This document shows positions 1,036 through 34,858 of a stretch of DNA of 64,000 nt, piece after piece. The translations under genes were made by a program, and so were the position numbers. How positions within the stretch are numbered: position 1 is the stretch's first letter; each line of letters opens with the position of its first letter. Origin of the DNA: Curvularia clavata (Eukaryota); NCBI GenBank assembly GCA_023920165.1, contig CP089275.1, positions 930,001 through 994,000 on the forward strand. The letters are read 5' to 3'. The notes under the pieces are model-generated. The model ran no database searches, was not told the origin of the DNA, and saw only the letters and a list, made by a program, of their open reading frames with translations.

Positions 1036-1113
1036 ATGTTTCTGGCATTCGCAGTCCGATTCCGCTATTCTTCCAGGCCGGCTTTTGTCAATTCCCACCT
1101 TTGCGTCTTCTGA
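1036..1113 (+). promoter_or_regulatory. Sole upstream ORF in the stuA upstream region (MFLAFAVRFRYSSRPAFVNSHLCVF*)
   Basis: The only ATG found on the + strand in 1-1982; ends at TGA 1111-1113. Leader micro-ORF regulation is known for Aspergillus nidulans stuA. Confidence 0.5.
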
Positions 1114-1517
1114 TCCCACACCCCCCAAAAAGCATTTGTCGACGACCAGCCCTTCTCTGCTTTACGACTGCAACGACGTAACGACCAGCTTTTCCCCCCT
1201 CCAGCATTGTTTGCAGCGTTCCACTTGATCCAGCAGCTTCCCGCGCCCATAGCCTATTTCTCTCCCCCACATCGGTTCGCAGCCAAGCCATCCTGGTCAG
1301 TATTCCCCCCGAAGCCAACTTCGCTCTCTTCTTGCCTACCTCTGTGCACACCCTCTGCAGCCAATCCACCACCACCTTTGCCTCTGCTAGCAATCAACTA
1401 ACTGGCCCTTCCAGATTATTCGCTCCGCCAACCTCTTGCCGCTACCTGCAGCCACGAGCGAGCCATCATCCTGCCGAACACGCCTGTGTGCAGCTGCGCT
1501 TTCATCTGGACGACTGA

Positions 1518-1982
1518 CTCGGCAATCTTTTCCAAGAAGCGCTCGACGTCCGACCCCAACAACCACATTTTCGACATCCCCTCAATACCGTAAAGCTGGA
1601 GCTCCCATCGATCTCGTCGGTCCACGCCCGCGGCCCTGCTGACTCTTGGTACCCATCCCATTACGCACCCAAGCCTGCCACCTCCAGCGAACGTCTACCA
1701 GCCCTGCCCCAGATTCAGTCGCACCCAAGCTCGTCGTCAAGCTCGTCGTCACCTCGCGGTGATTCCATCAGTTCTGGTTCGGTCACTGGCGGAAGCGCCA
1801 GCTCCAATACGTCGTACGCCGCGTCCGTCAACGGGCACACCACCGGCTTCAAGACGCCTTCCCCAAAGCACGCCCCCCAGGACCTCAGGCGAGACTCCCA
1901 CTCCCTCAACGTCCAGTCGGTCCAAAGCTCTCCCTTTGGCTCTCAGGAGGGATACAGTTTTGCTCCCGGCGGCTACAACAGC
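1518..1982 (+). other. stuA: AUG-less in-frame N-terminal extension of StuA (155 open codons; candidate CUG start at 1596)
   Basis: Frame open from TGA 1515-1517 to ATG 1983; reads KLELPSISSVHARGPADSWYPSHYAPKPATSSERLPALPQ...GFKTPSPKH...GGYNS-M. CTG 1596-1598 has A at -3 and G at +4. Confidence 0.6.
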
Positions 1983-4094
1983 ATGAACCAGATGCAATCG
2001 TATGCTGACGTGCATCAACCCCACATGGCTACTGCTGCTCACGCCCCAGCTTCGGCCCCTCCCTCGGGCCTGTCGCATTATTCCTATCCACCACAACCTT
2101 CAATGATGCAGTCGCAACATCAATATAGCCAAGGTCCGCCTGGCGGCTACCCTCCATACGGCTATGCTGGTGGAGTCCCCTCGCAAATTCCGGCTTCTTC
2201 ATCCATGAACCAGGCCATGGTACCATCTACTCTTCAACTACCAGGTTAGTTTTTGTCCTTCTATCCCTCTCTCTAGCATACAACAAGTAAGCCTAACATG
2301 TACAAGCAATGTCTTCTGGCGCGCCGGCTTCGTCACTACCGGGCTCTCAAAGCTACCAGACCCAGACATTCGACCACACTGGTCAAGTTGCTCCTCCAGG
2401 AATGAAGCCACGTGTGACTGCCACGCTCTGGGAAGACGAAGGCAGTCTTTGCTTCCAGGTCGAGGCCAAGGGTGTTTGCGTTGCCCGTCGTGAGGGTGAG
2501 TCAAAATGGGTTGATTCGGTAGGGAAACCAGACGAACTAACAACTAGCAGACAATCACATGATCAACGGCACCAAGCTCCTCAATGTTGCCGGCATGACA
2601 CGAGGCCGACGAGACGGCATTCTCAAGAGCGAGAAGACACGTCATGTTGTCAAGATCGGTCCTATGCACCTGAAGGGTGTCTGGTTAGTTTTGTCTTGTA
2701 CCTCTCTTCTTATGATGATGATCACTAATTCTCTTGTCAGGATTCCCTTTGAGCGAGCCCTCGAGTTCGCCAACAAGGAGAAGATCACAGAGCAGTTGTA
2801 CCCTCTGTTTGTCCATGACATTGGTGCACTGCTTTATCATCCGTCGAATCAGACGAGGTCAAGTGTAGGAAGCGCTGCCATGGCTGCTGTAGACCGCAAC
2901 CGAAGACCTGACCCTATGCAGACTCATCAGCGATACCTCTCTGGACCAGCGGCATCGCAACCTCCGTCGCTACACCACCATCACTCGATGAGCAACCCCA
3001 TTGGCGCTGCCATCTCGCAGCCTCCGCACGCCATTCAGCCTCATCCTTCCTCGGGCCGTCCAGGAATTGATCGAGCCCACACCTTCCCAACGCCTCCCAC
3101 GAGCGCTTCGAGCATCATGGGCATGGGAAATCAGGGAAGCTCTTACGAATGGAACGGCAGCAATGTCCAGAACCCCCAGGGTGGACAGCCGCTGTCTATT
3201 GATACAGGACTCAGCAATGCTCGCTCCGTACCCACGACGCCTGCTAGCACGCCCCCAGGAGCTGTCCAACAAGGCATGCCCTATGCATCCGGACAGAGCT
3301 TCGATGGCTCTCGGCCCATGTATTCCGGTCCTCCTTCCCAGCCCGGCCAGTACGCCCAGGGCCAGCCAATGATGGGTTACCGCCAGGATGGCTCCTACCC
3401 AAAGACCGAGATGGCACCGCCATCCCGCATCACCGAAGTGAACGATGAAGGTGAGGTCAAGCAGCCCGACGGAATGATGCCCCAAGGTCACGAGCAAGTT
3501 GCTCCACCTCCACAAGGCGGTGAAGGTGAACAACACCACGACGGCGAGTACACACACTCCAATAATTCCTACAATGGCAACCGTGGACCGTACGGATACC
3601 CATCCAATGGCCCTTCTGGAGCCATGCACCCTGATCATCCTCATCTCTCTCCAGAGATGACGGGCTCGCCCCATCAAAATGGCTCCGGACGTGCCACACC
3701 CCGTTCGGCTGCAACTGGCCAGCCTCAGTGGTCCTCGGGTTACCCCACTCCCCAGCGCCAGCCACCGCCTTCCAGCAACCTTTACAACGTGATGAGCGAC
3801 CCCCGTGGCGCATCCAATGGCAATGCCGGCCATGACGCCTACCAAGGCCCTGGTACCGTACCTCAGTACGCCACTCAAGGGTATCCTCCTTCCAATGGCG
3901 TAAACTCTGGTAAGCGCGGTCGCGACGACGAAGAAGAAGACCCCTACCGCCCTGATAGCGTTCAAGGAGACGACATGGGTGGTCTTAAGCGACGCAAGAC
4001 CCTCGAAGGCGGTGCCGTCGGTGGACCTTACGCTGATCCTTCTCCTGGCCTCCAGCGCGCGCACACCATGTCAGCCCAGCGACCCAGGCGATAA
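1983..4094 (+). CDS. stuA: APSES-family developmental transcription factor StuA/Asm-1 (~645 aa from first AUG)
   Basis: APSES domain [59 protein letters not shown]...[25 protein letters not shown], plus the [14 protein letters not shown] motif. Introns 2245-2306, 2496-2550, 2684-2740 restore one frame. Confidence 0.96.
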
Positions 4095-4429
4095 TCAAAG
4101 ACTTTGCACATTGCACGGGTGGTCAGTTGCCGTTTAATTGGCTTAGAAGGTGGATTGGCCTCGGTACACAGCGATTTTCTTGGCATCAAGTGAGCGGTTC
4201 TCTTTCAGCAGCATTGCAACATCCAACTACGACAATCTCGCCCGTCGGCGTCTCTTCAACCAGCACCAAACTAGTCGAGATTGTGTGCAAACGCCCAAGT
4301 TCGCTCTCTTATATTTCCTTGTGTCTACGTTCTTTCCAGGGTTTTGTCTCCTATCTACATTTCTGCTCCTCTCGGCATTCACGACTTAACGACCATTTTG
4401 CTTCGTGGAACCAACTGTTCCGACACACC

Positions 4430-4461
4430 ATGTCTAGAGGCTCCATGGATCCTCTAGACAT
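4430..4461. repeat. Near-perfect 32-bp palindrome downstream of stuA (probable 3' UTR)
   Basis: ATGTCTAGAGG-C-TCCATGGA-T-CCTCTAGACAT; one mismatched pair. Confidence 0.85.
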
Positions 4462-5686
4462 ATGACTTTTGCATACGGCATGAGCGCGTGCAAGTCTTGT
4501 ACATTCTACAGTCGCCTGGTTTTTTCTTTTCATTTGCAAACTCTCGAGGATCTGGGGAAAAAGACATGTTGATGTTGCAGAGTGTACCGCTGCAATGCCA
4601 CGTCAGTACGGTCTCCACTCTACGTGCGCCCATTCCACCACTGTTAATATGGAAAGCACTTACGTGGTTATACGGCGGACGACGCGAGCAAGGCATCTTC
4701 ATCTCCTTTCTTCTACTTCACAACCAAGAGTCCGCCACGTTGGACAAAAAATGCGGGCGCACACGAATTTGATGTTTACGCAATGATGATCTTTGTTTGG
4801 CGGGCATCGTATTCAGAGAGGAAGTTTTCAACGCCTTTGTGTTTTTCTAGCTAAGGCGGTCTAATGGGGCTGCCCATGAGCATACAAGGGCGAAGGTGGC
4901 CGCTGGACTCATGTTGGATATTTTTGTTGAAAGACACGGAAGGAAAGGTTCGGCTTTGGTGTTTTATTTTTTTGTTTCAATGAGCCGGCGATAGGGAAAC
5001 TTTTATGACGTTAATGAGGGAATTAAAAGCTCGTTTTGCATTGACGCCCATGACATTGTTGGATTGTGATGTTCTCTTCTCCCGTCCTCGTCTGTGCACC
5101 TTGTCTTTGGGCAGCCACGCAAGCCCAACTAGCAGCAAAACACTTATGAAGACGTGGAAATGAGGTTTGCATTATGAGCTGGTCTCAACAGGTGAGGCTG
5201 CAAGACCTTTCTCGGGCAAGTCCATGTTGCACAGAAGCCCAGACTCGCACAACCTAAGGCGTCAGTCTTACTAGCTAGCGGGTGCTGAGTGAGGTGGCAG
5301 TGGACACCGCCTTAACGGGCTAGGGATCCATGAGGCGGGCCCGGGCATCGAGGCCCCAAATGTGTCGGTGAAAGGCATGGAGAAGAGGTAACAGACTGGC
5401 ATACAGACTTGTGATTATAGATGAGGCGTAAGCGTAGTAGCAAGCAGCAGCCTAACGCAGGGCTGTACACGTGACGTGCATACGCAAGCCGACAAACAAG
5501 AGATCAGGCGGCTACCCCTCGGGCTTTGGCCGTCCGCCCCACTTCGTTCGTCATTGGCAAAACAAGAGAAGCACGAACTGCGCAACGGCATCGAGGCTGA
5601 GCCAGGCAGTCAATTTGCCGCCTAGTATATCCTTTCTTCCGCACCCGCCTTTCCCCTGCTGATTTGTTCTTCTGTACATCGCCATC

Positions 5687-7820
5687 ATGAACATTATCAA
5701 GCTGCAAAAGTACGTCGCCCGCACGACTCGTTTCCCTGCCCCTCCGCTCGCTTCCACGGTTGCTAACATGACATTGCAAACAGGAAGTATCCCCAATTCG
5801 AGCAGGGCGAGATCTTCGGCCTGCAAGATGCTTTCCGCAAGCTCGATGTCGACGACAAGGGCTACCTCGACGAGGCAACAGTCATCAAGGCCACACAGCA
5901 GTCGGAGCACCAGCCGTACGATGTTGTGCGACAAGCCCTGAAAGAGGTCGAGCTCGACTCTTCAAGAAGAGTAGAGCTTGACGACTATGTAGATGTAGGC
6001 AGCGCGACACACTGGACGTCATTTGGAAGCTGACCCGTCGTAGCTCATCGCCAAACTGCGAGTCTCGTCTCCTGCTCAGCAACGCATGTCTACCGGCCCA
6101 ACCCGCCCACGGGCCGGCACTGCCACGAGCGTCAACTCCCCCTCCAACCCAGGACATGCTTCCAAGGGCAGCTTGGGAGGTGGCAGGATCCAAGTGCAGG
6201 GCTCGTCTGCCAACGTTACCCACACCATCAACGAAGATGAGCGAACCGAGTTTACGCGCCATATCAACGCTGTCCTTGCCGGCGACCCAGATATCGGCGA
6301 CCGCCTGCCTTTCCCGACCGACACTTTTGAAATGTTCGACGCTTGTAAGGACGGTTTGGTCTTGTCCAAACTCATCAACGACAGTGTGCCAGATACCATT
6401 GATGAGCGTGTATTGAACAAGCCGGGAAAGAAGATCAAGGCGCTGAACAACTTCCACTTTACCGAGAATAACAACATTGTTATTGAGTCGGCAAAGGGTA
6501 TTGGATGCTCTGTTGTGAACATTGGCAGTGGAGACATTATCGAGGTGCGAGAGCACTTGATTTTGGGTCTCATCTGGCAGATCATCAGGAGAGGTCTGTT
6601 AGGAAAGATTGATATCAAGCTGCACCCAGAGCTTTACAGGCTATTGGAAGACGATGAGACCCTGGAGCAATTCTTGCGCCTGCCTCCAGAGCAGATCCTG
6701 CTAAGGTGGTTCAACTACCACCTGAAGAATGCCAAGTGGCACAGGACGTGAGTTTTGACTTGATCTGACTTTCACACCGGTAGCCGCTAACATTTGCAGT
6801 GTTACCAACTTCTCCACTGATGTCAAAGACGGCGAGAACTACACTGTCCTCCTTAACCAATTAGCTCCCGAAACCTGCTCCCGCTCCCCGCTCCAGCAGA
6901 CCGACCTTCTTCAGCGCGCGGAGATGGTCCTACAGAACGCTGACGCACTTGATTGCCGCAAGTTCCTTACTCCCACTTCGCTCGTGGCCGGTAACCCCAA
7001 GCTCAACTTGGCCTTTGTCGCAAACCTGTTCAACACGCACCCTTGCCTCGACCCCATCACAGAAGAGGAGAAGGCTGAAATTGACGATTTCGACGCGGCA
7101 GGCGAGCGTGAGGCTCGCGTCTTCACTCTCTGGCTCAACTCTCTCGACGTCAAGCCAGTCGTGCAATCTTTCTACGAAGACCTCAAAGATGGAACCGTCA
7201 TTCTCCAAGCATACGACAAGGTCATTCCAGGCAGTGTCAACTGGCGCCACGTGAACCAGCCTCGCGAAGGCCAGGAGCTGATGCGCTTCAAGGCTCTCGA
7301 GAACACAAACTACGCTGTCGAGTTGGGCAAGCACAACCAATTCTCTCTGCCCGGTATCCAGGGTGCTGATATCACCGATGGTCAACGCACTCTTACTTTG
7401 GGTCTCGTCTGGCAGCTCATGCGCAAGGATATCGTTTCGACGCTCAACGGCCTCGCCCAGCAACTCGGCAAGCGTGAAATCTCCGACACAGACATGATCA
7501 AGTGGGCCAACGACATGGCACGAAAGGGCGGCAAGGGTACCCAAATCCGCTCTTTCAAGGACACTTCGCTCAGCAACGCCATCTTCCTGCTCGACGTCCT
7601 CGCCGGCATGAAGCCCGCCTACGTCGACTACGACCTCGTCGCCCCTGGCCGCAACGACGACGAATGCTACCAGAACGCCAAGCTGGCTATTAGTATCGCG
7701 CGAAAGATGGGTGCTACCATTTGGCTCGTACCAGATGATATCGTTGCTGTACAGAGCAGGCTTATCACTACTTTTATTGGTAGTTTGATGGCTACGGCGG
7801 AGAAGAAGGGTGCACAGTAA
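5687..7820 (+). CDS. SAC6: Fimbrin (actin-bundling protein: EF-hand-like N-terminus plus four calponin-homology domains)
   Basis: HTINEDERTEFTRHIN, LILGLIWQIIRRGLL, GNPKLNLAFVANLFN, GEREARVFTLWLNSL, NAKLAISIARKMGATIWLVP. Introns 5710-5783, 5995-6043, 6748-6799. Confidence 0.96.
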
Positions 7821-9605
7821 GAAGGCACATGTCTGATGATGTCGTTTATCAATTTTTTTTTCTCTTTCCTTTATCCAAAGCCTCGGTGAAATGTGGGAGA
7901 CGCATGTTGCAACCCGTTTTGATTTGCTGTAAAGCGTATGAGCGGTGGGGAAGGCAAGCGTCCATTTCTTGAGATGAGGCTTTTTTTTATACAGTAGCCA
8001 ATGAGAAAAAGAATTAGCTTTTTGTTTTATATTCGTGTCGAAGTGTTGTGTTAGTAGTTGAAGCTGATGATGTGGGTGCTGCCTTGGGTCTGTGATATAC
8101 TCTCGTCAACCCAGTGTCTGGATTGTATTCTTTCCCTAGCTTTGTTGCATACCCTCGCCACATGCCGTTTTCTTATGTCAGTATTAGGGCAGCTCGGGAA
8201 ACTTTCTGACATCTTTGTTTCTCCTTTAGTGAGACCGTACAGACTCGAAGATATAACAGGAAAAGCCCAGAGAAAGAAACCCATGTATTATCGCTAGTAT
8301 CAGAAGTCCAACAGACCAAGTTCTCTCACCTTCCTGCGCGTATTCACACGTACACATATTTCCCTATCCCCTCTACACTCTCCCCCGTTGTTATTGATAA
8401 TCTAGATCCTGTAGTACACATCTCTTCTTTCGTCCGCTAATAGTCTCTATGATACTTATAGCTAGTCTACTTACCTGCTTCACACACTCACTCACCCATA
8501 TGCATCCTTCTCGATCAATCTATCCACTACACTTCTTCACAGTCAAGACCAATCAAGCCAAGTCGTACTTCTCCTCTTTCGCATTACAACTAAACTCTTA
8601 CATCCTACTTACCCATTTTCCCCAGCGACCAGAAACCCTGCCTATCTGTTTTCTCGCGCTCGCTACACAGATAACAGCGAACAAATACGGAAAAAAAACA
8701 AGACATGAGCAGCTTCTTCGCGTAAGAGCAAGTGCCTGAGCAAGGAAAGTGTTAAAACTAGGTTTTCAAGATGGTGGAAAATTCTGCTGAAGAGAAACAA
8801 AGCGAAGGTGAGGTTTTTAAAAGACAATGGTGATTCAAGTCAATGTTGAGGTAGGCGCGAGAGAGAGGAGACGCCGCAAAAAAAAAAGGCGAAATCAATT
8901 CCCAAGTCCCTAAGACACTACACTACACGGTAGGAAAACAAGCCTTGACATTTGTAATGCAAATGCACAACTTGAGCCACAAGAGGTGAATAATATATGT
9001 GCCTGGTTTTATACATGGCCGCCAATAGGCGAGAAAACAAGAAAGAGCCCACACACACACATGCACGACAGCGGAGCGGGTCGCATCAGAGTGTCCACTC
9101 TACGATGTACATACCAAACCCGTGGAGAACCCAAAAAAAAACGTGGGGCAAGTAGCCGACGGGCGCTTGCAGGGGGAGAAGCTAGGGGAGCTTTAAGCTA
9201 CCGAGGAGACCCAGCATGAAGATCAAGCTTGACAAGAGACAACATCACACGATAGACAACACGTTGAGGCAAACATTGGGAGAACATTGTAAAAAAGACG
9301 CAATTCATTAACTATCCACACACGTAGCACCGGTAAATTCATCACACAACCAAGCAGATATACACAAGACCCAAGCCAACCGAAGTGTCGAGACACCATG
9401 AGAAAGCTCAAGCCAAGTGCAATGCTACCATGTTGAGCAAGCATGCAAAAAGTTATGAACACATTTATAAGACATAGTGGTCATGAGGAAACAAACGCCC
9501 AAGTAGAGTTGATTAGAGAACGTTTGGATAAGACCTGATGAAATGTTAGATGACAAGAGGCAAAGGCATGGATGAAGGAAGGGACATACCATTGAGTAAA
9601 GGCAT

Positions 9606-10424
9606 CTACAACCTGGAGCCGTGGACAACCTTGTAGTCGACAGCCATCTCCATACCATCGTCGTTGATGACGAGGATGCGGACGCTGCCACGGCCGTTGT
9701 CAAAGGCCTCTGTCAGGCGGGAGAGGAGACCAGACTGGTCAAGGACAGGGAGGCCCTGCTTGACATCACCGCCCTCGGTCATGGCAACAACGCGACCATC
9801 CTCACGGATGTCGAGAACACGGTACTGCTTGAAGACAGGACCAAGCATGTTCTGGACAACAACGGAGGGAGCCGGGTTGGAGATGAAGCTGGACTCCTCA
9901 TGGAGCTGCTTGGTGAAGAGGTCAACACCGAGGTAGCGGTGCTGGCCAGTCTGGGAGGAGGTGGTGATGCGGATGACCTGGCAAGGGCGGCCCTGAAGGA
10001 TCAGGAGATCGCCAATGCGGATGTGGTGGCAGGGGATGGTGATGGTGTTGGCGGTAGACATCTTGCGGACTGAGCGAGCAGGAACTGGCGCGGTTGCGAG
10101 AGAGGTAGAGATAGGTGCAGGTGCGACGTGGGCTGGTCGGGGAGCAGGGGCAGAGCTGTGGACGCGAACGACACGCTCAACAGGGACTCCGGATTGGACG
10201 GGACGGGCAGGGGTAACGGTGGGAGTAGTAGAGTAGTACTTCTCCTTGACGATTACCTCTTCGCGTTGGTCGTCGTACTTGGCACCAGCAAAAGAGTGCT
10301 CGTGCGAGTGGTGGTGGCGGTGAGGGTGGATGGGGTGCTGAACGCGGTCGGCTACCTTGTGTGCGGCGTTGGAGATTCCTTGACGAAACGAATGGTACTT
10401 GCCCTCGTTGTCGTAATATCCCAT
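9606..10424 (-). CDS. hex1: Woronin body major protein HEX1 (AUG-initiated form, 272 aa), eIF5A-like fold, PTS1 -SRL
   Basis: MGYYDNEG start, TIPCHHIRIGDLLILQGRPCQVIRITTS, HRYLGVDLFTKQLHEESSF, C-terminal VVHGSRL. Confidence 0.97.
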   Translation of the reverse strand: MGYYDNEGKYHSFRQGISNAAHKVADRVQHPIHPHRHHHSHEHSFAGAKYDDQREEVIVKEKYYSTTPTVTPARPVQSGVPVERVVRVHSSAPAPRPAHVAPAPISTSLATAPVPARSVRKMSTANTITIPCHHIRIGDLLILQGRPCQVIRITTSSQTGQHRYLGVDLFTKQLHEESSFISNPAPSVVVQNMLGPVFKQYRVLDIREDGRVVAMTEGGDVKQGLPVLDQSGLLSRLTEAFDNGRGSVRILVINDDGMEMAVDYKVVHGSRL

Positions 10425-11633
10425 ATCACGCTTGAACTTCTTGGGGGAGGTAGCGGTGGAACGAGCAGATTCTTCTACTCGGACCTCAGATTGGTAGCGT
10501 GTGTCAACACTGTCAACCTTTCTGTTGTTGGGGTACGTGTCGCGTTGGGTGGTGTAGGTCTCCTTGGGATAGCTAGCACCGGCGACGATGGGACGGGTAC
10601 GTTCACGGAACTGACGCTCGGTGACGTCGAGTTGAGATTGAGCGTAGGTAGTGGCAGGGCCGTGAACAGTGTTGAAGTGTCTGTCGTAGGTTGGGTCCTG
10701 AACCTCGACTTTTGAGTGAGAAGAGGATGGAGGAGGTTGGGATTGGTAGCTGAAGGAAGAAAGGAAGTCAGCTTGGGGTTGGGCAAGGAAGAGCTTAGAG
10801 GAGGTGAGGGAAAAGTGGAGCCTGCATGTCGCTCGGACAACAACAAACCAAAGCGGCTAGCGCCCAGCGGTGGCTGGGTGCCGCTAGTGTCAGGGGGCTG
10901 GTCTGTTGTGATGATCCGTGCGAAGATGCGCTGGCAAAACAATGGAGCTTACTTACCGGTCGTGGGAACGTCCAAACTCTACGCGGTCCGTACGCTGGGC
11001 GTGCTGGACGTGCTCCGAGTGCTGAAGGTGCTCCGAGTGCTTTGAAGGCGCCTGGGAAGGTGCCTGAGCGCGCTGCTGGCTTGGCTGTGCGTAGCGAGTG
11101 TGCTCGTGGATATGAACCTCTTCACGGTGCTGAGGAGGCTGCTGAGCGTGGATGTGCTGGCGGGTAGCGTGGAACTGCTGTTGGGGAGGCTGGGGACGGC
11201 GGATTCGCTCTTGTTCGTAGATGCGGACCTCTTCCTTGACCTGGGTGTCGCGGTGCTCAGAAGCAGACGAAGACGAAGATGATGATGAAGATGAGGATGA
11301 AGTGGTTGATGGAGGTGGTGGTGGGTGCCGATGAACGGTAGCGGAGAAGGATTCGTGGATTTCTTCGTGACCTTCCCGTCCGTGTGAAGCCTGCTGCTCA
11401 AAATGTGCTTCTTGTTCTACCTGAATAGAGGTAGATTCCTTAACTTCCGCGTTCCGATACGCAGACGGGAAGACACTGAAGGGGATCGGAACCTGCTCAA
11501 ATCAGCACAATTCGATGCAAATTGGTGGGGAGAAAAAAAAACGGCGTACTCGTGCTTCAAAATCCAGTTTGCCGGAGTCGGGTCGCTCTTGCTTGAAAAC
11601 CCTTCGAACCGTTCGAAAACAATTCGAAAGGAA
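10425..11633 (-). other. hex1: Spliced AUG-less in-frame N-terminal extension of HEX1 (315 codons; candidate CUG at 11567, ACG at 11612)
   Basis: Introns 11549-11493 (GTACGC..CTGAT..CAG) and 10956-10750 (GTAAGT..CTGAC..CAG) join VFKQERPDSGKLDFEAR|VPIPFSVFPSAYRNAEVKE...HDR|YQSQPP...KKFKRD in frame to MGYYD. In-frame TGA upstream at 11636-11634. Confidence 0.7.
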
Positions 11634-14600
11634 TCAAGAAAGAACTTCTTGGCTCCTTTGAGGGTCTCACTTGGAGATGGTTGTGATGGGCGAGTCTACT
11701 CGGGGAGGCGCCAGCTTCGTGGTGTTGACTTGACGTGCAGCAGGGTGAAAGTGCGCAATTGGATGCAGTAAGCGGGGTGGTAGTGGTGGAGGAGAGATGG
11801 AGTCAGGAAGGCCGAGGAGGGGATCAAGTAGATTGGCGGTCAGGCAGGCCGCTGTTGTGTGTGCCGTCTCGTCTTCGCAGGGTTGTGGAGGCTGGGTAGC
11901 TCGAGCAGAGCTGTCCCAAAGCAGCCTAGCGTTGTTTACGCCGGGCCCTAGCGCGTCGCAGCTGCCCCTATTCTACCTGTGCTGGGCGCATGAGGACCGG
12001 ACGTCGCCCGCACCGAGGCTATTGCTGACGCGCAATGCTGCTCATCACGGCTGTTGGCCCGGCGATGGGCGCACATGGGGTCGACTGTGCATTCACAGGC
12101 TCCACAAGGCTGCCCGGCGACCTCTGGCGCCCCTTGTCCAGCGCCATTGCGTGGGCTTTTGCAATTGGAGCACGCCCAGCCCTCTTCACATGCATCATGC
12201 GCTTGCTAATGCCCAGCGACGCGCCATTTTTCAGCTGGGCCCGTCCATGTTGCGCGCCGCCAGCTCTTGATAGCTCCCAGCCTCTCCCCAGCCTCCCGCT
12301 TTTTGACGCGTCGCCATTGGCCCGCCCTCGGTATTACTCGCGCCCCAAGCTCCATGGCCTGATGACGATCGCGGATCCTCCGGCCCATCACGTGAAAAGG
12401 CCCCATCGATCGCAGTCCAGCTCCTCGTCAGCTCGCTTGCCCGGGGTTCAACAACCACCCAGGCGAACCGTGGTTCTCCACGCCTGCATCCTCCACCGTT
12501 CCCCCAGCCTTGACGTGCAGACACGCGGCGGCAGCAGTTTCATCGTGGTGGACCGTGGCCAATCGTCTCGTCGCTCAATGCCCTCACATATTGCTCCCCC
12601 TGCTCGCTGCCAGCAAGTGTGCTGGGATCTTGTCATGAACTGACATTGTCGGCAGTGTATCAGCCAGGTTCCCCATGATTGTGCTGTGACATTTTTATTG
12701 CCCGTCTCTTTCTCGTAAGATTAAAAACCTGCTTGACTCGACGTGCCTATCACCATTCTTTTTGTGACGCGCCCGATCGGCCTTGGACGGCTCTTTTGAG
12801 GAGCCGTGTCCGCAACGACCTGGAAACTGCTTATTGACTTACTCGTTTGCCGGAAACCGCGTATCGGACCCCGTTATCGACAATGTCCATGTCAATCGAC
12901 GCAATCGAGTTGTAGTGTGGAGTCGTAGTCTGTTGTGTTTACAAGTTGAGGGCTGCTTGTCTTCCTCGCTCGCAATATCGTGGCTCGGCTATCTAGTGGG
13001 GTAAGCGGCTACGTGACTTCCCAAAGCTCCTCTGCAGCCCAGACGCAGCTTCCGTCAACTTGCCCCAACAACAAAACATAGTCGCGTCTACGCCCTGTCT
13101 TCTGATTGGCCTCGCCAAAGATAGAGCCATTTGCAAGAGCATGTACGATAACCATACCACGAAGCAGCCAAGCCACTCCAACATCCCTTACGTACTCTAC
13201 TCTAACACTTCCGTGGAACACCAACTTCACATGCTCTCTGGGCTGTCCCATGTGGGGTTTTGATAGTATACGGTGGAAAGGTATCGTGGTCAAAACAAAA
13301 CTCACTTGGCTAGATGTGACACTTTGATTTAGCAAAAGGAAAAGAAAGTATAAAATACCATTTCTTTTGATATCACATGACAATGCTTCTGACGTAGATT
13401 GATTCAGTATACCGTGAGATAAGAAACTCCAGTCCACAATACCAGCAGATTACTCCAGTTGTATCCAGCTTCGATGCGATCCAAACAAGCAATCATTACT
13501 TGTGACAATGATAATCATCAACATGCAATGATACTATTTCTAGATACTTTGCGTAAGGTTTATTAGGATCGTAATATGGTGCAGCAGAAAACGAAGAAAT
13601 TTATAGTTCAGGACACTCCGCTGATATTGTGTTGTTACCCTGAAAAATTATTCAACGAGTCTACAATTGTCACTTCTATTACATTGATCAACTTGTATGG
13701 CCTTTGAATACCCTTTCCTAATCTAAAAAATTCCATTTCCCTTCATCGTACCTTTTTCGCTTCAAAAAATCAGGGGAAGACTAGTAATCAAACAGGCAAA
13801 GATAGCGGTAGAATTCAATAAAAAATGTGTGTTATTTTCAAGAAGAGATTTGTCATAAGACTGTGGTCTCGTCGTATGTTGCTAGTCTGTAGTCTTAGTC
13901 TAGTGCTGTAAGTGAGTGTTGCGGTGCGAGGAGTGGGCGGGTGATGAACTGTCCCACAAATAAGTGCGAATTAGGAGGCAGAGTAAATAAGGAAATTTTC
14001 TAGAACTTGACCACATGTTGTGCCACACTATATGTTCACGCGGCTTTTAATGAAGAAGATGAACAGCGTGCCTAGCGCACCATTCAGGGACAACAAATCC
14101 CACTAGACTTCATTGTCTTTTCTTCCTTCGTCACTCCCTCTATTAAATAAAGACACCGAATAAATCACACACTCAAATCGCACCTTTCAGAACGCTGAAA
14201 CCCCATACCACATTTGAATTCCAAATAAACTCGAATTTTTTCGTCTCTATATTGAACGATTGTTTAGAAATAAGAAAAACGATGCAAGTGGAGAATTTTA
14301 TGACCAGGTCTCCAACTTGAAATTCACAGAGGAAAGTACTGAACCTGCCAGATATTGAGCTCCGAGTTAGGAGGAAACTGAGGACGACATACTTTCTTGC
14401 ACTTGTAGGTACAAACACCCGTGATGAGGTTATTGCTACTATCTCCAGAAAACATGAACGTAAAAATCCCATAGAATCAGAGCATACCTTGTTCACACTA
14501 TAGACTCTCCCCTGACACCGTCCACAAACACATCACCATGATTATCACATTTGCAATATCAAACCTGCAAGTAAACACGTAATTAATAACCTCATTTCAA

Positions 14601-32604: not shown

Positions 32605-33065
32605 GCAACTAGGGAATTAGTTGATGTGGAGGGAGTTGGGAGGGGAAGTTTGGTTTGGGTGCAGTTCGGCGGGCGACCGGGCAATTTTCTACTGAGTAAT
32701 GGGCACAGCTGGAGCTCGGCCTCTAGTGTCGTAGATCCTAGATGCACAACCCGACGTCGGTTGCTGTCCGCCAGGAAAAAAAAACTGGGCGAGCGTCTTT
32801 TTGGACAGCCTGGTTTTTTGGTCTAAAGATTCTGCCGGTGGGAGGATCCGAGCAGAAGTATTAGTAGATTAACAGCGGTGTAGTATCGGTGGAGAAGGCC
32901 GCTCAAAAGCAATCTTGCAATACCAAATGGGTCCGATGGTCTCTGCAAGTATTGTGGCGCCGGGAGGAGAGCACCAGCAAACAAACAAGGATCGGGTATG
33001 GAGTCTAAGACGGAGAGAAAGTGCGTATACAAGACACGGCACTAGTCTATGATACAGGCGTGTAT

Positions 33066-33099
33066 GTAGTCGTTGTAGTAGTCGTAGTAGTAGTAGTAG
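33066..33099. repeat. Imperfect (GTA/TAC)n microsatellite upstream of ACC1
   Basis: gtagtcgttgtagtagtcgtagtagtagtagtag. Confidence 0.7.
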
Positions 33100-34858
33100 G
33101 AAGACTCGCGAGCAAGAGGGCAAGTCGGACGAGGATGTGGGAGAGGAGACAAGAGCCAGAAGCAGCGTGAGAAGGAGAAGAAAGACACGACGGCTGCAAA
33201 GGCGGCGGGCTGGGAGACGTGTAGGTATTAAATCTCAGCGGAACACCGCAATGCACATCCCGAAGAGCTGTTGAGCCTGAGCCGATGGAGGGCAGTCTGC
33301 AGCGATTCCAAAGACGGCAAGGGCGCAGTGCCGCCCCTGCCCATCCCTGCCAAAGTCACCGTAATCGACTCGGAACTCGGTCGGAATCCAGACGAGCAAA
33401 CTACCGCAACTCCGCTGGAAAAAAAAAACTTGGGCGCGACTGACTTGGGCCATGTCGACTAGAAGCTTCGAGTGTACCGGCCAGGCGCCGCAGAGTGGCC
33501 TAAGTGGACAGAACCACGGGTGCAGAGGCCATGGCGGCGTCGGGGGGCCATGGCGGCCTGTTGGGACTCTGTTCCGCATTAGTTTGTTGTTGCGAGATGC
33601 CAACCCCGATCGCGACGATTCTGCGGGTTGACTATGGCCCAGCAAAACATTTGGCTGCATTGCATGGCCTCGACAATGTCGCCGGTCCCCACTCGCCCTT
33701 GATTCTCCTATCTACTCCTGCTACTGCTACCCCTCTTGCTCAACAACCCACACTCGCACGCTGCCATTCCGACATCTTCCATCGTCCGCGGCCTCCCCCA
33801 CTCCAGCGGCCCCTGACGGTGACTACTCGCAGACAGCCGCCCTGCCCTGCCCTCATAGACTAAGACAATAAATAAGCCCGCCCGTCCGCCATCACGATCG
33901 CAGTAGCCACCTGTCCCTGTCCCTCTCGTTGTTCCACCATCATGGTGATCGGGTCTCCTCCTCCGGTGTCACTCCCACCGGACTCCGCCACCAGTCATCC
34001 AATCAGCGCACCGGCCCTCCCCCAAGTCGGTACATATCCCCAAACGCTTCCCCCTCGGCGTATATCCAGTCCATGACGCCTCTGTAATGCTTTGAAAAAG
34101 AAACCTCGAGCCATATCTCCCGTAGTGCTATCAGGACGGACGGCATGTGCGCGCCAAAATGCTTCTTCCCGTGTATCTATGTGTGTGCGTCTGTGTAGGT
34201 GATCTGCTGGTTGTTGCGATGCGCGTGTACAGGTGGGAACTTGGCACGGGCGACCGCCTGTAATCCCCCCGAGCGAGTAAGCCGCTGCTAGGCTGCTTTG
34301 AGCTGCAAAACTTTTCTTTGCTTATGGGGGGGGGCGCGGTAAGGCAGGCACATTGCAAGGCACCAAACACATTTATATATATATACATACATGTAGTCTG
34401 TGGTAAGAAGCATCGGAGACTAAAGTGCGGGCTTCCGAGCTGCATTCCGAAGATCCAGGGTCCTGCGTGCGTGCGTTTTGCTGCTGCGTGAGCGGCCTGT
34501 CCCGCACGGTTTGACATCACAATCGTACGATTTTTTGGCTCCGAACCACACCACACGTCCATTTACCCCAGATTTTCCTTTCCCACACAAACTTGGACCG
34601 AATCAAGCAGTTGAGCCGCTTTGCCCGCACACGTGAAAGAAAAACGCACAGGGAATAGTCAAAATTGACCGGCAGTGGCTTTTGTGACTTCGCCGTCGGA
34701 GCAAATACATACCCAGGCACCAGGTACTCGGCGCATCATGAACCAAACGAGTGCATATCAAACGGGGTATATTGATTGACAAAGGAAATCCTGCTGCTAG
34801 AAGCAATATGTAACTGCCCCAAAGGGCTTGTCGGTCGCCATGGTCTCTCCATGCTGGT

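Follow-up and report, generated by a model that had tools for sequence, protein, structure and literature searches.

StuA and HEX1 of Curvularia clavata very probably carry overlooked N-terminal extensions begun at CUG codons

Introduction

Two genes of the mould Curvularia clavata, encoding the transcription factor StuA and the Woronin body protein HEX1, are each preceded by a long reading frame that joins the annotated protein in frame and holds no AUG of its own. Both lie in a stretch of 64,000 nucleotides (nt) of contig CP089275.1 (assembly GCA_023920165.1, positions 930,001 to 994,000), referred to below as the window, in which all coordinates are counted. An earlier note on this stretch, made from the letters alone, had proposed that the two genes share a mode of isoform control based on non-AUG initiation. 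The locus thus raises two questions, namely whether the upstream frames are translated from a CUG codon, and whether the two genes form a joint system. From the comparative sequence evidence presented here, StuA and HEX1 each very probably make a longer protein from a CUG start, whereas a distinct shared StuA-HEX1 control system is unsupported.

Results

An invariant CUG upstream of StuA

Transcript evidence was taken from contigs of four runs from four studies; three of the runs are presumed to be RNA, and their contigs skip GT..AG introns. The StuA region comprises the following features.

1036..1113, + strand: upstream open reading frame (uORF) of 25 codons in the StuA leader, exonic, its AUG weak in context, with C at -3; contigs X3 and X5 (two of four runs) run through it without a joint
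1296..1414, + strand: StuA 5′ leader intron, 119 nt, GT..AG; joint in two of four runs, the two that cover it
1587..1599, + strand: putative StuA CUG start (1596-1598) in the context ACCGTAAAG-CTG-G; CTG in all 69 placed sequences
1596..1982, + strand: predicted N-terminal extension of StuA, rich in Ser/Pro, 129 codons long and bearing the motifs LxLPSIxxV and ERLPxL; 17 homologous proteins, frame open in all 40 distinct sequences, low predicted local distance difference test (pLDDT) scores
1983..4094, + strand: annotated AUG form of StuA, an APSES/KilA-N transcription factor, containing introns; KilA-N PF04383 and RNA contig joints

From the CTG at 1596 the frame runs on into the AUG at 1983, 129 codons away, and the nearest in-frame stop lies 26 codons above the CTG, with no Met codon between. 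To see how this arrangement fares among relatives, we used one metagenome scan and examined the best 80 of 294 confirmed StuA stretches. The first conserved leucine could be placed in 68 of the 80 loci (in 51 through its motif, in 3 a codon earlier, and in 14 by hand or by where the alignment starts); eleven of the remaining loci end before the site, and L076 has a stop four codons above the AUG. Window included, 40 sequences are distinct, being less than 95% identical.

The putative start codon is CTG in all 69 sequences (the window and 68 loci). The next leucine codon, by comparison, varies among the 40 distinct sequences (CTC in 16, CTG in 11, CTA in 8, CTT in 4 and TTG in 1). Conservation extends to the context, with A at -9 in 38 of the 40, C at -8 in 40, C at -7 in 39, and G at -6, A at -3, A at -2 and G at +4 in every one; positional identity is 0.89 over -9 to -1, against 0.36-0.43 above -9. 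The extension frame is open in all 40, and its median ratio of nonsynonymous to synonymous substitution rates (dN/dS) is 0.165 (78 pairs among 13 Pleosporales-like sequences), compared with 0.094 in the first 80 codons from the AUG. Purifying selection thus acts on the encoded peptide. The sequences fall into Dothideomycetes, a Eurotiales clade anchored by Elaphomyces, and a third clade that we take to be Leotiomycete-like; the extension segment is kept across at least Dothideomycetes and Eurotiales. Loci L019-L037 had been regarded as Penicillium-like, an assignment dropped because the tree groups them with Dothideomycetes.

AUG codons are scarce along the path to the annotated start. A single ATG occurs in the 1,982 nt before the StuA AUG, against 15.7 expected from dinucleotides (Poisson 2.5e-6), and the extensions carry 2.4 ATG per kb versus 28.2 just downstream of the AUG. 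At least one ATG is present in 21 of the 40 extensions, and of the 30 ATGs lying out of frame, 29 carry a pyrimidine at -3, which fits leaky scanning that reaches the AUG.

The single ATG before the StuA AUG, at 1036, opens the uORF; its placement in an intron was rejected, as it is exonic in both runs (of four) that reach the site. Of the 40 distinct StuA sequences (window included), 9 have a homologue of 19-27 codons, and the others lack it. A YSSRPAFVN-like core of the uORF is kept in several Pleosporales, and L015, L017 and L018 have lost the AUG with the core DNA still there. Elsewhere in the leader (600-1240, +), several non-coding blocks, ACGAC-rich repeats and a stretch around 1205-1220 among them, share 75-88% identity between Pleosporales loci and are possibly regulatory elements.

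A longer extension upstream of HEX1

On the opposite strand, the HEX1 region is organised as follows.

11577..11988, - strand: HEX1 AUG-free 5′ leader; no ATG from 11988 to 10828
11550..11576, - strand: putative HEX1 CUG start (11567-11565) in the context TCCGGCAAA-CTG-G, with the six-codon first coding exon; frame analysis, L018 DNA and Leu in homologues
11493..11549, - strand: HEX1 intron 1, 57 nt; spliced in four of four runs
10957..11492, - strand: second exon of the predicted HEX1 extension, opening with a near-invariant VPIPFSVFPSxYR; 40 homologues with the window query, 153 with a more distant query
10750..10956, - strand: HEX1 intron 2, 207 nt, containing the sole ATG of the region (10827); spliced in four of four runs
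10425..10749, - strand: part of the third exon belonging to the extension, with a basic cluster at its end, right before MGYY; spliced frame and homologue counts
9606..10424, - strand: HEX1 short form, from the MGYY AUG (10424) to the peroxisomal signal SRL; PF21485, PF01287 and translation

Once both introns are removed, the frame of the CTG at 11567 (-) leads into the AUG at 10424 and adds 293 codons; an in-frame stop lies 22 codons above the CTG, with no Met between. One ATG is found in the 1,557 nt before the AUG, against 7.6 expected from dinucleotides (Poisson 0.004). The ATG-free stretch measures 1,300 nt spliced at most, the mRNA's 5′ end not being fixed by the contigs. Contig X10 starts at 11842, and X3 and X5 continue beyond 12600 at full depth, reflecting either a long HEX1 leader or a joined divergent transcript.

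Protein searches returned 40 matches to the HEX1 extension with the window query and 153 with the more distant query, 120 of the latter listed, from Dothideo-, Eurotio-, Lecanoro-, Geoglosso- and Leotiomycetes and other classes. The start motif is present in 129 of 156 proteins examined. All 129 have leucine at the proposed start, and the first 19 residues (this leucine and the next 18) are near invariant among them, while annotated starts are scattered from 1 to 497 residues upstream. The residues preceding the leucine are mostly [STPA][VAG][NKT], corresponding to nCn Gnn AAn, the same bases as in the StuA context, and the HEX1 DNA of L018 has the CTG in the context TCCGCCAAA. Purifying selection on this extension was judged by protein conservation and not by dN/dS. 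At its end, at least three of the last ten residues are Lys or Arg in 104 of 153 homologues.

Structure predictions give no confident fold for the N-terminus of StuA (pLDDT about 40-55), and an Alternaria HEX1 homologue is mostly under 50 at residues 10-221. The long in-frame, disordered extensions described by the earlier note are therefore borne out in frame (129 and 293 codons) and in low pLDDT, for HEX1 through the Alternaria homologue. Its view that both upstream regions are purged of AUG over more than 1.3 kb holds in part: both are AUG-poor and HEX1 fits, but the StuA leader has the exonic uORF at 1036. The three longest ATG-free gaps of the window nevertheless fall in the StuA and HEX1 regions (1161, 1035 and 944 nt; the next measures 651). 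This fourth gap is located at 32605-33255 (-).

The shared context is that of strong starts in general

The earlier note had further pointed to an almost identical context, AAR-CTG-GA, at the two codons. In this short form it is not rare, occurring 14 times in the window; the likeness itself is real and longer than claimed, CCGnnAAR-CTG-G. In the genome, this pattern occurs 148 times, against 127 for its reverse, and a stricter form 14 times against 11, so that it is not enriched before CTG. Before ATG, in contrast, it is found 160 times versus 95 for the reversed pattern (p = 6e-5), and the stricter form 45 times versus 12. Among the 30 of these 45 stricter sites that were read are the starts of EF1A, EF2, RPL10, RPS0 and eIF5. 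Since the same context also opens ordinary AUG genes, we regard it as the strong start context that a CUG needs.

A genome-wide scan had been suggested in the earlier note; the one performed here covered CTG codons, with a pattern derived from StuA and HEX1 themselves, and among its 148 sites revealed one further candidate, a C2H2 zinc-finger gene on another contig. The longest ATG-free spans among the sites belong to HEX1 (1164 nt), StuA (947) and this gene (745); only these three sites lie in spans of at least 600 nt, compared with 0.27% of 5,615 other CTGs. With StuA and HEX1 left out, one site in 146 does so, which is within chance (p = 0.32). The result favours a small class of CUG-start genes, tempered by the origin of the pattern and by this p value. 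The third candidate (L208, 1504, -, equivalent to G000:C4 near 3348526; also L284) has the context ACCGCGAAG-CTG-G and a 93-codon in-frame extension, and presumably encodes an Sfp1-like factor. Atlas clusters of 596 aa match its short form, and those of 681-682 aa roughly its long form. Exact look-ups gave no match, and Atlas matches for the first exon scored below 0.9. Two variant patterns added no candidate: ACCGNNAAYCTGG, with 28 sites and ATG-free spans of up to 349, and ACCGYCAMVCTGG, with 14 sites, spans of up to 505 and no long frame.

Adjacency of StuA and HEX1 is confined to some Pleosporales

Contrary to the description of StuA and HEX1 as neighbouring genes, a third gene sits between them.

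5686..7820, + strand: fimbrin, with an ordinary AUG start; calponin-homology domains and RNA contig joints

The order StuA-fimbrin-HEX1 was seen in L018 and L042, which are two of the five loci with about 12 kb of downstream sequence, and is implied by locus tags of Bipolaris sorokiniana. In three loci that retain the StuA CUG, namely L061 and the near-identical L035 and L036, HEX1 was not found within 12 kb downstream of StuA. Hence, among the loci seen, the adjacency is limited to some Pleosporales and is not kept wherever the StuA CUG is kept. The leaders also differ, the uORF being present in StuA only.

StuA contains the KilA-N/APSES domain, and its closest named StuA cluster is from Curvularia/Bipolaris; HEX1 is recognised by its eIF5A-like domains, MGYY start and C-terminal SRL. 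A 57-nt, in-frame StuA intron (2865-2921, +) is spliced in X3 and X5 and leaves the frame open if retained, so that its retention possibly yields an alternative form. HEX1 has a 3′ untranslated region intron right behind the stop codon (9535-9589, -), spliced in four of four runs.

Discussion

Probable production of two nested proteins per gene by leaky scanning

We consider it likely that each gene gives two nested proteins by leaky scanning, and that the likeness between StuA and HEX1 stems from the common needs of a CUG start rather than from a linked unit. On a single mRNA per gene, a minority of scanning ribosomes would initiate at the CUG, placed in the strongest context of these fungi, and make the long form, a protein with a disordered N-terminal extension. 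The remaining ribosomes would pass the CUG, encounter no strong AUG and begin at the annotated AUG, producing the short form. Any CUG start would need a strong context and an AUG-poor path, which would suffice to make the two genes alike. The ratios of long to short forms would follow global start-codon stringency, as in any mRNA with both a CUG and an AUG start, and in StuA the uORF would add a layer on top.

Some observations count against this reading. The 40 StuA sequences share ancestry, and the counts are not independent events. The L056 StuA has an in-frame AUG at codon 30 of its extension, and the L076 homologue, with its stop four codons above the AUG, has no visible extension, possibly because of extension loss or an unseen intron. 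The HEX1 CTG was seen as DNA in two genomes only, the window and L018. In the available sections of the cpc-1 study, near-cognate starts give an in vivo output below 1% of AUG (PMC5487733), and the long forms of StuA and HEX1 may therefore be scarce. Antibody work cited by Vangalis et al. detected two short Hex1 forms, according to the portion at hand (10.1101/2020.11.04.367870), and the HEX1 long form may for that reason be rare. Finally, the two best of the 148 motif sites lie 10 kb apart, a closeness that we would put down to chance together with a pattern drawn from these very genes.

What the extensions would do is a matter of guesswork. The StuA extension, with LxLPSIxxV at its start and LPxL as a second motif, is similar to the Mig1 repression domain and might add co-repressor motifs of that kind; this domain is among those listed in the accessible part of PMC10163088, and StuA is described, in the part of PMC3563288 available, as a repressor of brlA and abaA. 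For HEX1, whose long form retains the C-terminal SRL, the guess is that the extension adds a conserved binding motif and bulk, altering targeting or crystal packing and growth.

Alternative explanations

The invariant leucine could be an ordinary internal residue of proteins begun at an upstream AUG, by way of an unseen exon or splice form. Many annotations draw such models, and the contigs leave the mRNA 5′ ends unfixed; the annotated upstream parts, however, disagree between species, and an internal leucine codon would vary, as the next one in StuA does. Moreover, an in-frame stop lies at most 10 codons upstream of the StuA CTG in 9 of 39 distinct sequences, and eight of these nine are contigs with unbroken ORFs of 673-790 codons, hence spliced, with the stops 3-10 codons above the CTG. 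Because spliced contigs carry a stop just above the CTG, an upstream AUG is excluded there, and we hold this explanation to be largely refuted and extremely improbable. The regions might instead be conserved as RNA or DNA elements without useful translation, the long HEX1 models being annotation errors, as Vangalis et al. hold. In the parts of the sources available, hexA genes were proposed to have a structured 'hexA motif' nearby (PMC5640933), and protein-level reports show short Hex1 forms only (10.1101/2020.11.04.367870). Yet the StuA dN/dS goes with free synonymous change and a frame open throughout, the HEX1 start region has no stable fold (z +1.46), and downstream of the StuA CUG the median z is +0.79, without covarying structure. 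Li and Breaker likewise saw codon-like periodicity in the tail of the hexA motif (PMC5640933, section at hand). RNA structure at either start was no better than in shuffles, a stem that begins 18 nt past the HEX1 CUG is unremarkable (z +0.27), and an Rfam search of the window gave no match; a purely RNA- or DNA-level role is thus very unlikely. For StuA, the CUG form might be the main protein and the AUG form minor, given that constraint is tighter on the context of the CUG than on that of the AUG and that two Venturia nashicola annotations put Met at the leucine position. The weak contexts at 29 of 30 internal ATGs, on the other hand, imply selection for ribosomes reaching the AUG, and the Venturia Met, judged from protein only, may reflect a CTG to which the annotator assigned Met. 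Met-starting annotations (Venturia, Pyrenophora and two Logan proteins) were set aside as no proof of initiation, and we find a dominant CUG form quite improbable.

A dedicated stringency regulon would go further, with StuA, HEX1 and a few other genes sharing a selected CUG element and the eIF1/eIF5 balance shifting their isoforms together in development. In its favour stand the excess of long ATG-free spans among the motif sites (3 of 148), the near invariance of -8, -7 and -6 in StuA, implied for HEX1 as well, and the anatomy of the initiation factor genes. Two eIF1 paralogues (L083, L084) both have a pyrimidine at -3 of the AUG, a poor context, and eIF5 has a strong AUG preceded within 304 nt by three possibly exonic ATGs with a pyrimidine at -3; the arrangement resembles the feedback described for other fungi in the available part of PMC7049704. 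Against it, the pattern comes from the two genes and one site in 146 remains without them, ordinary AUGs use the same context, and HEX1 is missing downstream of StuA in three loci despite the StuA CUG. The chance of a pair within 10 kb is 0.2% among 3 such genes, but 53% among 50. We regard such a regulon as unlikely. Of the shared isoform control envisaged by the earlier note, the non-AUG start of each gene is strongly supported; a distinct shared system is not supported, with the context that of ordinary AUGs, the adjacency lost in some loci and the leaders different. A passive joint shift of the StuA and HEX1 isoforms with start-codon stringency is plausible, because mRNAs with a CUG and an AUG start should respond to stringency and the genome shows what looks like the anatomy of eIF1/eIF5 feedback.

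Relation to known systems

Two nested proteins made through a CUG start would place StuA and HEX1 with a known kind of gene. In Neurospora cpc-1 and its Pezizomycotina homologues, an N-terminal extension is initiated at near-cognate codons (Ivanov et al. 2017, PMC5487733), and a CUG start of Podospora IDI-4 is cited in the same paper. As far as the sections of that paper at hand go, the likeness comprises a conserved near-cognate codon in a strong context, a frame open to the main AUG, purifying selection, and annotations that include the extension without its true start. StuA and HEX1 have a single invariant CUG, unlike the several codons of cpc-1, and the cpc-1 starts bypass an inhibitory uORF, whereas HEX1 has no uORF and that of StuA is upstream of the CUG. 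The features that mark a cpc-1-type case were found for our genes: a frame open to the AUG, conservation of the codon and of -3 and +4, purifying selection, and no upstream in-frame AUG. Wei et al. (2013) are said to have listed Neurospora genes with such extensions. There is strong support for counting StuA and HEX1 among conserved non-AUG extensions of the cpc-1 type, StuA being the fresher case. In the open literature searched, outside which the original stuA and HexA papers lie, neither StuA nor HEX1 was found to have been described with a CUG start; PMC11413187 and PMC6371581 contributed nothing further.

A second comparison is offered by the mammalian NAT1 motif, GCCGCCRNN-codon-G, in which -6 and -7 are named as key for non-AUG initiation, with eIF1 as an inhibitor (PMC13754004). 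In the section available, this enhancer is termed mammal-specific after tests in yeasts, wheat and fly, filamentous fungi falling outside that section. StuA resembles the motif in C at -8, C at -7, G at -6, a purine at -3 and G at +4; the full motif is absent, since StuA and HEX1 have A or T at -9, are free at -5 and -4, and have A at -2. It is conceivable, though improbable, that a NAT1-like element (CCG at -8 to -6, AA at -3/-2) licenses CUG starts in a few growth and development genes of filamentous ascomycetes, namely StuA, HEX1 and the Sfp1-like factor, and that stringency shifts all three and toggles StuA between a repressor, the CUG form as the sole carrier of the Mig1-like motifs, and an activator.

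Earlier work on the two genes can be read in the same light, within the portions of the sources available. Aspergillus nidulans stuA has a leader with a small uORF and two transcripts (PMC3730340, PMC3563288); our StuA shares the long leader, the leader intron and the small uORF, while no CUG start or longer protein is mentioned in those portions. For the Alternaria StuA, a length of 631 aa was assumed, counted from the AUG (PMC10715145). Predicted Hex1 proteins are often long, roughly half of 460 measuring 405-534 aa (PMC7559983); the long ones were deemed unexplained or annotation errors, with no CUG start proposed in the passages at hand (PMC7559983, 10.1101/2020.11.04.367870). A conserved, coding-like element upstream of hexA was treated as a non-coding RNA (PMC5640933); that this 'hexA motif' may be the HEX1 extension region is a lead worth recording.

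StuA, a central regulator of development, has been studied in many moulds. If the CUG form is real, AUG-based StuA gene models, N-terminal tags and expression constructs would miss 90-140 residues. The constrained bases at -8 to -6 of StuA also provide a fungal test case for an enhancer called mammal-specific. In HEX1, a CUG start would account for the spread of predicted protein lengths that has so far been blamed on annotation error.

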